64,000 nucleotides of DNA from an uncultured Alphaproteobacteria bacterium (lineage in GTDB: Bacteria > Pseudomonadota > Alphaproteobacteria > RF32 > CAG-239), in NCBI GenBank assembly GCA_944391475.1, contig CALXTR010000002.1:194-64193 (forward strand), in the 5' to 3' direction. This document shows positions 23,818-24,320 of this stretch, in pieces; position 1 is the stretch's first letter, and every line of letters starts with the position of its first letter. The translations under genes and the position numbers were made by a program. The notes under the pieces are model-generated. The model worked only from the letters and a program-made list of their open reading frames with translations. It had not been told where the DNA came from and did no database searches.

Positions 23818-23847
23818 AACCGGCTCAAACGAGCCGGTTTTTTTTAT
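23818..23847. terminator. Bidirectional intrinsic terminator between proS and the XRE ORF
   Basis: AACCGGCTC-AAAC-GAGCCGGTT followed by a T-run. Confidence 0.8.
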
Positions 23848-24089
23848 CTTTTCTCAAAGCTTATCTTTAACTTATAGTGATATTTATAAGCAAGTGCGTG
23901 GAGGAAGGCGATTTCCATTTGGCGGATATCCCCTGCTTCTAAGCAAAGCAAATGATTGGTGCCGATATGCAGCATTTCTGCGGCGGTTTCGGGTGATAAA
24001 TCCAACTCCAATCGCATATTGCGGATTTGTTCGCCAATTTCTTTGCGGCATTCCCGCCAAGATTTAATACGGTTACGATGATGTCCCAT
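23844..24089 (-). CDS. Small XRE-family HTH protein (copy B), paralog of 58945..59193
   Basis: IGEQIRNMRLELDLSPETAAEMLHIGTNHLLCLEAGD fits the HTH_XRE pattern. Synonymous differences from copy A indicate purifying selection. SD AAGGGAG. Confidence 0.75.
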   Translation of the reverse strand: MGHHRNRIKSWRECRKEIGEQIRNMRLELDLSPETAAEMLHIGTNHLLCLEAGDIRQMEIAFLHALAYKYHYKLKISFEKR

Positions 24090-24286
24090 AGCTCTAAACT
24101 CCCTTTAGGTTTCCAGTTAAAAAGAAACCGCCCTAGCATTCCTAAGGCGGGGAGTTAGTAACTGCCAATAGAACAGTCGACCTTCTTCGTTATGCACAAG
24201 GCATACTTATTCCGGCCGCTCCCCATTCAAGGAGCTATTTTCTATTGGAGGAGTTACTACACTCCACACTCGGCTCTCCCGAGTGC
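24090..24286 (-). promoter_or_regulatory. Structured 5' leader RNA with internal intrinsic terminator (copy B)
   Basis: Homologous to 58750..58944. The same helices are retained through compensatory or wobble changes. Details are in the findings. Confidence 0.65.
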
Positions 24287-24292
24287 AATTTA

Positions 24293-24320
24293 AGCTTATC
24301 TTATCTCACAAAATTTGCAA
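24293..24320 (-). promoter_or_regulatory. Putative sigma70-type promoter of leader/XRE module B
   Basis: TTGCAA, 16 nt, TAAGCT. Both hexamers and the spacing are identical in copy A. Confidence 0.5.

Follow-up and report, generated by a model that had tools for sequence, protein, structure and literature searches.

The window analysed here is the whole stretch of 64,000 nucleotides taken from contig CALXTR010000002.1 of an uncultured Alphaproteobacteria bacterium, and the subject of this work is a unit present there in two inverted copies, A (window 58716..59193, forward strand) and B (window 24320..23844, reverse strand), each composed of a putative promoter, a leader of approximately 195 nt and an open reading frame (ORF) for a small XRE-type protein (82 aa in A and 81 aa in B). 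The leader possesses a conserved RNA fold maintained by compensatory changes, and the evidence for this fold is very strong, comprising more than 25 independent helix alleles, each internally complementary. Alignment of 58660-59260(+) with 24400-23800(-) by MAFFT gave a mean identity of 86%, the two units being 84-86% identical, with the similarity setting in a few bases 5′ of the -35-like hexamer TTGCAA and ending at the stop codon, and this inverted pair is the sole repeat of at least 40 nt within the window. An earlier note on this DNA had ascribed the same -35 and -10 hexamers with the same spacing to both copies, which the alignment confirmed: TTGCAA (24315..24320(-) in B; 58716-58721 in A) is followed after a 16-nt spacer by TAAGCT (24293..24298(-) in B; 58738-58743 in A, where the promoter-like region thus covers 58716..58743(+)). 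All copies of the family described below have TTGCAA or TTGCAT 16 nt before TAAGCT or TAATCT, and the sequence and spacing of the -10-like element coincide in A, B and related loci. Consensus promoter scan missed these hexamers because the match to the -10 element is weak, and it is their conservation across the copies that points to a promoter at this place, with a predicted transcript start near 24286(-) in copy B.

Leaders of the family are 194-203 nt long, counted from GCAC... to AUG, and read from 5′ to 3′ their fold consists of the terminal hairpin H1, the helices P2 and P3, one nested in the other, which close a three-way junction with P4 and P5, an intrinsic terminator, one more hairpin, the Shine-Dalgarno (SD) sequence and the AUG codon. 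In copy A, the leader RNA occupies 58750..58944(+) according to folding and covariation. H1 (8 bp with the loop GAGAG; 24266..24286(-) in B and 58750-58770(+) in A) has its pairs 100% kept in 26 sequences. P2 is a long-range helix of 13 bp combining GGAGU-bulge-UNNNAACU with AGUUNNNA-ACUCC; in B its 5′ strand GGAGU-G-UAGUAACU with the triplet AGU (24252..24265(-)) covaries with the 3′ strand AGUUACUA-ACUCC (24151..24163(-)), which together with the next C residues makes up an anti-SD segment AACUCCC(C), and in A the helix is formed by 58771-58784 and 58872-58884(+). The same 5′ strand of B could alternatively form a local hairpin, H2, with ACUCC located directly 3′ of it. Nested inside P2 is P3, whose strands in B, CCAAUAGA (24241..24248(-)) and UCUAUUGG (24165..24172(-)), are complementary to each other (58788-58793 with 58865-58870(+) in A). 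The P4 hairpin, GCUCCUU-GAAU-GGGGAGC in B (24218..24235(-); 58802-58819(+) in A), has a variable loop and a stem that is the same in all 27 sequences, its two U-G pairs included. P5 (24179..24217(-) in B; 58820-58858(+) in A) includes the arm GGCC/GGUC, in which four of the four outer pairs are double-changed, a conserved purine-rich internal loop GGAAUAAGU/AACGAAGAA and, in B, an inner hairpin AUGC-CUUGU-GCAU. The terminator, found by terminator scan, spans 24117..24150(-) in B with a G+C-rich 9-bp stem at 24128-24150 and the U-tract UUUCUUUUU, and its counterpart in A has the stem at 58885-58907(+) and the U-tract extending to 58917; it ends about 27 nt 5′ of AUG in B, and the gap of no more than ~27-37 nt between terminator and AUG speaks against a further promoter. 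What follows in B (24090..24129(-)), namely the hairpin GGUUUC...GAAACC overlapping the U-tract, the SD AAGGGAG at 24099-24105 and the spacer, is invariant in all copies; the respective hairpin and SD of A lie at 58906-58926 and 58929-58935(+). Then comes the ORF, an 81-aa XRE-type helix-turn-helix (HTH) protein at 23844..24089(-) in B, taken from the ORF list, and its 82-aa counterpart at 58945..59193(+) in A.

Between the leaders of A and B, 32 alignment columns differ, and 15 of these are paired columns touching 10 pairs. All 10 differing pairs remain standard ones, half of them being changed on both sides and none being broken, so that the idea of the earlier note that the substitutions spare a common RNA structure is sustained already by this pair. 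The individual differences listed there in H1, the helices and the terminator stem were all recovered: the 3′ arm of H1 reads CCGAGTG in B and CTGGGTG in A; the long-range helix is CCAATAGA/TCTATTGG in B against CATATG/CATATG in A; the outer arm of P5 is CGGCC in B and CGACC in A with GGTCG opposite in both, and its inner arm is ATGC in B and GTGC in A with GCAT opposite in both; the stem of the terminator is the same in A and B, with one change in its loop (GAAUG versus GAACG). Two details had to be amended. The U-tracts, described as identical, differ by a 1-nt indel (TTTCTTTTT versus TTTCTTTT), and the change of GTAGTA in B to GTCACA in A, assigned to a loop of H2, does exist but affects no free loop, being part of the covarying P2, where the triplet CAC of A or AGU of B changes in concert with GUG or ACU about 100 nt downstream. 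In the folding test with dinucleotide-shuffled sequences, z values for the leaders were -5.1 and -6.0, none of 200 shuffles being equally stable, and in RNA cut after the U-tract the minimum-energy fold coincides exactly with the covariation-supported one. Neither leader matched anything in Rfam 15 by gathering score or with E up to 10.

Scanning one genome per species revealed eight loci, seven of them in a single metagenome-assembled genome (MAG) of uncultured Alphaproteobacteria (BRZ_DM_bin47) and one in another bin, so that the further copies for which the earlier note recommended a search do exist and form a family with at least seven members in one related MAG. Copy A has a syntenic counterpart among these loci in L004 (flank identity 92-96%) and copy B in L001 (flank identity 81-94%), implying that A and B predate the split of the strains. 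Comparison of the A and B ORFs, also proposed earlier, yielded 18 synonymous and 18 non-synonymous differences (many of the former had been anticipated), dS 0.53, dN 0.10 and dN/dS 0.19; the ORF is thus under purifying selection, and together with the same-locus orthologs this favours functional diverged paralogs over a recent duplication, as had been suggested. Members of the family are single, intergenic and located beside housekeeping genes (gyrA-like|ssb; proS|EF-hand gene; downstream of topA; atpH|priA; lpxA|pheT; SDR|ftsH). Every leader match of the covariance model described below stands before such an ORF, and ~212 kb of related sequence contained no leader without its ORF.

Compensatory variation was assessed in an alignment of 18 distinct full leaders (A3) and in an extended one (A7) comprising 27 distinct leaders, those of a sister lineage included. 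The structure was set by hand from the copies and then pair-counted against 500 shuffles and slid controls; it was specified manually because RNAalifold, applied to the plain MAFFT alignment, did not choose P2 and P3. A covariance model (R1) was built from this structure, and the 27 leaders were re-aligned with it, which means that they were fitted to the model; the plain MAFFT alignment gave the same result as the fitted one. Among the 18 leaders, 98.9% of pair cells were paired against 90.0 ± 0.6 in shuffles, none of the 500 reaching the same height, with double changes in 16 pairs and 34-45% in slid controls. For the 27 leaders, 98.3% of 1422 pair cells were standard, again with 0/500 shuffles matching and 35-46% in slid controls, while 19 of the 54 pairs were double-changed, in 152 cells. 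Distribution of the substitutions at random with respect to the pairs, the outcome that would have spoken against the earlier proposal, is thus contradicted by both alignments, in which slid controls stayed at 34-46%. RNAalifold, a tool also named there, was run on the plain MAFFT alignment and returned a consensus composed of invariant alternative pairings instead of P2 and P3, the arms of P3 being misaligned by sequence alignment. As for individual helices, H1 exhibits G-C/G-U alternations and one double change from C-G to U-A, all five scored pairs of P3 and four pairs of the terminator are double-changed, and the invariance of the post-terminator hairpin makes covariation impossible there. 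Invariant unpaired stretches, GRAAUAAG, ACGAAKAA and GACUG, accompany these helices along with the invariant P4. Alternations involving G-U in H1, P5 and the terminator are found on the predicted transcribed strand only, implying that selection acts on RNA and not on DNA palindromes. A putative upstream ORF or leader peptide starting from ATG in the P4 loop was considered and rejected, as its in-frame A/B differences are all non-synonymous yet pairing is kept, and the position of its stop shifts.

Variable helices occur as sets of discrete alleles. For the triplet of P2 there are four (CAC/GUG, AGU/ACU, CGA/UCG and AGC/GCU), all complementary; P3 has about nine, each complementary to its own partner; P5 is represented by two domain types, with (type 1) or without (type 2) the inner hairpin, and about seven stem combinations; the terminator has about six stem alleles, complementary without exception. 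These alleles have been reassorted between copies and strains: at locus B, an identical protein is found on contigs with three leader haplotypes, and at the topA locus a single protein is accompanied by either P5 type, by two alleles of P2 and by three terminators. Such mosaics fit contiguous tracts of gene conversion that would end in the invariant segments. The divergence of A and B assumed in the earlier note holds as far as the paralogs are concerned, but it is not simple drift by point mutations, helix alleles being exchanged as blocks by recombination. Helices broken because their arms come from different alleles, for instance CAC with GCU or CGA with GCU, were observed in L005 (2803-3003) and in L036, L037, L038 and L040. 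In L007 (2663-2935), and also 5′ of the ORF in L003, an insertion of ~270 bp resembling a miniature inverted-repeat transposable element (MITE), with terminal inverted repeats GGCCCCTAAATCCCCCTTAAA / TTTAAGGGGGATTTAGGGGC, interrupts the 3′ strand of P2, the first two-thirds of the leader preceding it; what might be taken for an alternative 5′ leader in L003 and L007 is accordingly a normal leader split by this element, whose inverted repeat has no occurrence within the window. Another repeat was noticed in L006 (3400-3740), where the gap between the XRE ORF and ftsH is full of imperfect palindromic units of ~125 nt (for example, GGTTATTAGAGTTCTTTTCAAGG...CAGAAAAGAGCTCTAATAACC twice), for which Tandem Repeats Finder reported nothing.

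A multicopy unit whose parts are mosaically shuffled between copies, in genomes where MITE-like and palindromic repeats are also found, among them the one that splits the leader of L007, may itself bring to mind a selfish or mobile repeat of MITE-like, prophage or toxin-antitoxin descent, with covariation as a by-product of block inheritance. We regard this as very improbable. Terminal inverted repeats and target duplications are missing at the borders of the module, no terminal repeats being found where homology ends; the loci are syntenic between strains and even lineages; no relatives were found in IMG/VR and in phage, plasmid and viral collections; and the ORF is under purifying selection. 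Block inheritance can explain the spread of more than 25 helix alleles but not the origin of internal complementarity in each of them. A type II toxin-antitoxin system with a HigA-like antitoxin was rejected as well, the unit being monocistronic, with housekeeping neighbours at every locus and no toxin gene nearby.

Proteins of the family (81-88 aa) can be assigned to XRE-type HTH regulators by matches that are weak but consistent: Pfam HTH_25 gave 24.5 bits against the cut-off of 24.6, HTH_31 matched with E 1e-3, and profile search of PDB returned XRE regulators, with 4ghj as the best (E 4e-4) and also HigA2 and ImmR. Non-synonymous differences between A and B concentrate in codons 50-63, and within the family discrete alleles of the HTH region are found, the regulators being diversified in and beside the recognition helix. 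Variation in alignment A2 is mosaic in the region of codons 38-63; the N-terminus exists as MGHHRNRIK, MSHNYRRQA or MGRYSKRIK, the recognition helix as HIGTNHLL, HTGTNHLL, HIGLNQLL or HIGLEHLL, and the next segment is allelic as well, in differing combinations. This pattern suggests that recombination diversifies the DNA-binding specificity predicted for these proteins. Among 5.8 billion proteins, 66 clusters (at 90% identity) belong to the family; none bears a name, and identity to the query is nowhere below 59%. Search with the XRE profile through 1.84 billion representatives gave only 49 matches at E up to 1e-3. One full-length distant relative was obtained in this profile search (P0071, 85 aa), and its family is found in human gut metagenomes, judging from record names and a Human Microbiome Project sample. 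The same profile also matched proteins of 360-520 aa with five tandem HTH repeats (P0068, P0069, P0070, P0072 and P0073). The sister of the host lineage lives in the human gut, and the host of the window is probably a gut inhabitant too. In metagenomes of the Joint Genome Institute (JGI), search by DNA pattern and protein alignment found nothing, the pattern having demanded the H1 variant GCACTCGGG and being blind to GCATCCGGG of the sister lineage, a lineage that is represented in a JGI sample (L042). In the literature, accessions of samples and assemblies led to no paper.

The sister lineage gives the clearest view on what is preserved in the module. Its locus L036 is syntenic with L006 (gmk-yicC-SDR-[module]-ftsH-trx), and identity between them comes to 95% for FtsH, 81% for SDR and 77% for YicC, falling to 27% for the XRE protein. 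Leaders of this lineage are 84-87% identical to A and B, as close as A to B, score 175-216 bits with R1 and bring an additional double change in H1, from CU/AG to UC/GA. Conservation of the leader while the protein diverges argues for an RNA function common to all copies, and this evidence points to RNA rather than protein as the conserved partner. It equally argues against autoregulation, whereby the XRE protein would bind its own promoter or leader, as DNA or RNA, and the conserved elements would be its binding sites. XRE regulators commonly autoregulate, and H1 is near-palindromic and located just downstream of the -10 element, but G-U variation in H1 keeps the RNA hairpin and breaks the DNA palindrome, residues of the recognition helix differ between proteins served by leaders and promoters of 84-87% identity, and the same protein coexists with three leader haplotypes at one locus. 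We therefore hold autoregulation to be improbable.

A similar architecture is known in Bartonella. B. henselae has nine Brt RNAs of 194-203 nt, and other Bartonella species 2-34; each is followed at a distance of about 15 nt by a small XRE gene (Trp) lacking its own promoter, and the short RNA is highly expressed, the downstream gene poorly (PMC5387305, PMC8070961). Deletion of the 3′ stem-loop of Brt1 de-represses trp1 (Tu et al. 2016, PMC5387305; review PMC8070961), Trp1 binds the badA promoter, and Brt RNAs were reported to be genus-specific to Bartonella (PMC5387305, PMC8070961). Our comparison set comprised five plasmid-borne Brt-Trp loci (L031-L035 from pBGR3, pTLV-1, pOE11-1, pBHa and pTT0105). 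Minimum-energy folds of all five begin with a 5′ hairpin, continue with long-range helices nested in each other and a junction of several hairpins, and close with a 3′ hairpin, which is the order backed by covariation in our family; this resemblance was judged by eye and not statistically. In both systems, found in Alphaproteobacteria, an RNA of 194-203 nt directly precedes a promoterless small XRE gene; both are multicopy (2-34 in Bartonella; at least seven here, two of them in this 64-kb window); and the 3′ stem-loop attenuating the regulator gene in Bartonella has here as its counterpart a predicted terminator with covarying stem alleles. Likenesses extend to the long-range helix, which connects GGGA(G) or GGAGU with (C)UCCC or ACUCC, has variable inner pairs and encloses a nested variable helix; to the G-rich SD, complementary to the CUCCC strand and last in order; and to a hairpin arm (CCGGGAG in Brt and GGGGAG here) that can pair alternatively with the CUCCC strand. 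Differences concern the proteins (81-88 aa here and 108-152 aa in Trp), the terminator, canonical and with a U-tract here, whereas the Brt hairpin (GCGAGGGCGCUCGC) has none, the genomic setting, with copies scattered by housekeeping genes here but clustered in a plastic prophage-rich region of 277 kb and also found on plasmids in Bartonella, and the host, which here is an uncultured non-Bartonella lineage. BLASTP against Trp of pBGR3 gave 23% identity with E 0.13 (81 aa versus 118 aa), and Trps match generic XRE proteins and not our family; Brt itself has no family in Rfam. The module is hence best described as Brt/Trp-like in build, its membership of the Brt/Trp family not being assignable on present evidence. 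In the five Brt RNAs, we also noticed compensatory variation in the 5′ hairpin and two nested long-range helices (AAUUCUAG/CUAGAAUU, AAUUAUAG/CUAUAAUU and AGUUCGAG/CUCGAACU), as well as a competing pairing of UUCCGGGAG with CUCCCGGAA.

Taken together, these data make it probable, in our opinion, that the module combines an attenuator leader with a stable small RNA and gates diversified XRE regulators. Each copy would be a self-contained transcription unit, in which a sigma-70-like promoter drives synthesis of a structured RNA of ~195-200 nt. By default, transcription would stop at the terminator, releasing a stable rod-like RNA of ~170 nt: with the terminator placed immediately after P2 and no upstream segment covarying with its variable stem, termination is the probable default outcome. 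The ORF would then be carried by read-through transcripts only, the XRE gene having no promoter of its own. A second gate may operate at translation. The anti-SD AACUCCC is complementary to the SD GGGAGUU; locked in P2 it would leave the SD free, and once the 5′ strand of P2 folds as the local H2, the anti-SD would be released and the SD masked. Segments with CUCC occur three times (in the 3′ half of H2, in the 5′ arm of P4 and in the anti-SD AACUCCCC), as do segments with GGAG (at the 5′ end of P2, in the 3′ arm of P4 and in the SD), and together they allow several mutually exclusive pairings, including those of the P4 arms with the anti-SD (CUCCCC) and with the SD (AGGGAGUU). In the full leader, SD-free and SD-masked states are 0-4.6 kcal/mol apart in every copy, and a third set, GGGGAG with CUCCCC and the 5′ arm of P4 with the SD, is preferred by RNAalifold on the sequence alignment. 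Since the leader is common to all copies and the regulators are diversified, a single shared signal acting on RNA would most likely be coupled to many different DNA-binding outputs, a logic for which experiments on Brt/Trp in Bartonella provide the precedent.

Several points weigh against this picture. Alternative pairings (H2, anti-SD with SD, GGGGAG with CUCCCC and the 5′ arm of P4 with SD) involve invariant bases only, so that covariation neither supports nor refutes these states. No antiterminator covarying with the variable stem of the terminator was found that would account for a switch to read-through, and both ends of the transcript as well as its abundance are predictions. Because helix alleles are exchanged as blocks, many compensatory cells do not represent independent events, whose number is thus overstated by cell counts; the numbers of distinct complementary alleles are sounder evidence. 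Mismatched P2 or P3 arms occur in L005 and L036-L040, copies that may be decayed, non-functional recombinants or assembly chimeras. Confidence in the AlphaFold2 model of the protein is low (predicted local distance difference test 68.6), and Foldseek found nothing in PDB below E 5. As to the parallel with Bartonella, R1 scored the Brt site of the five plasmids at 3.8 bits with E 2.3, nhmmer found nothing in either direction between our leaders and the five plasmid-borne Brt RNAs, and homology to Brt could not be demonstrated.

The balance between the two products of such a unit may be seen otherwise, with a terminated transcript of ~170 nt as the main product, acting in trans as small RNA, and the ORF expressed through incidental read-through. 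It would have its own promoter and a strong terminator, its terminated form folds into the rod supported by covariation, RNA is more conserved than the ORF, three CUCC motifs resemble anti-SD sequences, and Brt1, among the most abundant transcripts of B. henselae, was proposed to be trans-acting (PMC5387305, PMC8070961). Yet the CUCC motifs are paired and not exposed in the supported fold, and the SD, spacer and post-terminator hairpin do not vary, and behind them there is in every case an intact ORF under purifying selection, which implies that the link between RNA and ORF is itself selected; the lack of orphan leaders speaks in the same sense. Alphaproteobacterial small RNAs of the alpha-r14/NfeR1 type are present in several copies per genome and contain repeated CUCC motifs and a Rho-independent terminator, with CUCC exposed in loops, and are not known to be tied to a downstream XRE ORF. 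The leaders had no match in the Rfam scan and differ from this type in that CUCC is paired and RNA always precedes an ORF. As the principal role, trans-action thus appears possible but doubtful, a dual function being compatible with the attenuator scheme.

Features of riboswitches and dual-control attenuators are recognizable as well: covarying helices surround conserved unpaired bases and the invariant P4, the leader contains a predicted terminator, and the putative anti-SD/SD pairing would add a second layer with mutually exclusive helices. As a sub-case of the attenuator model, the P3/P4/P5 junction with the invariant purine-rich internal loop could bind a small molecule, and binding could shift the state of P2 relative to the alternative pairings and thereby influence termination, access to the SD, or both. 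Preservation of RNA independently of its downstream protein is in line with a common signal acting on the RNA in trans, and a response to heme was proposed for Brt1 (PMC8070961), although this link is indirect. On the other hand, the downstream gene is always a regulator and never a transporter or enzyme hinting at a ligand; P5, which comes in two markedly different forms, one of them devoid of the inner hairpin, is atypical for a ligand pocket; and no antiterminator backed by covariation was found among the leaders. Multiple copies, exchangeable helix cassettes and the lack of an Rfam match further distinguish the module from these systems, and we consider a true riboswitch rather unlikely.

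Some features in the vicinity deserve mention in their own right. ORF B shares with the converging proS (ORF 22267-23790) a bidirectional terminator at 23816..23841, detected by terminator scan. After the stop codon of A, but not of B, a hairpin-rich element of ~100-150 nt is located (59194-59360(+), GTCATCCCTCGTTTTTCAGAGAAAAACGTCCAGGGATC ... GACCCCTTGACGACTACTAAAGTAGTCGAGGGGTGACA), its part 59207..59310(+), GTCATCCCTCG...GACCCCTTGACGACTACTAAAGTAGTCGAGGGGTGACA, being absent from B. Elements of this sort also follow the ORF in L003, L004, L006, L025/26 and L029/30, with strain-dependent presence at the topA locus, and may represent either a part of the 3′ untranslated region of the module or an independent repeat. 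The EF-hand gene beside B can be called as a 171-aa ORF starting with TTG (24245-24760(+)) and running into the leader on the opposite strand, and this long form is used in some public gene calls (L051 and L054). As a genuine opposite-strand ORF it was rejected, being an over-extended EF-hand gene with no counterpart at copy A; the true start is likely the ATG near 24404 (MKYLSLAAL...), and such over-extension could mask the leader RNA in annotations. The sole match in the window at the Rfam gathering score is a tRNA gene at 32002-32075(+) (58.4 bits).

The arrangement of Brt and Trp has so far been described only in Bartonella, and the structure of Brt was never supported by covariation. An equivalent module is now found in a different, uncultured lineage of Alphaproteobacteria, which adds a concrete and testable secondary structure together with a model of the switch, while the swapped helix cassettes provide a natural set resembling mutagenesis. 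A new RNA family could be founded on the module, which could also guide the search for the signal and prompt re-examination of Brt. It is a speculative thought, and one we think will more probably fail than hold, that the leader is a new riboswitch-like class of RNA and at the same time very remotely related to Brt in structure, the two defining an alphaproteobacterial superfamily of RNA-gated XRE regulators. If true, host-associated Alphaproteobacteria, represented here by uncultured relatives of a lineage from the human gut, would turn one host-derived cue, for which heme was proposed in the case of Brt1, into many transcriptional programmes, and gene conversion would maintain the interchangeable helix cassettes.

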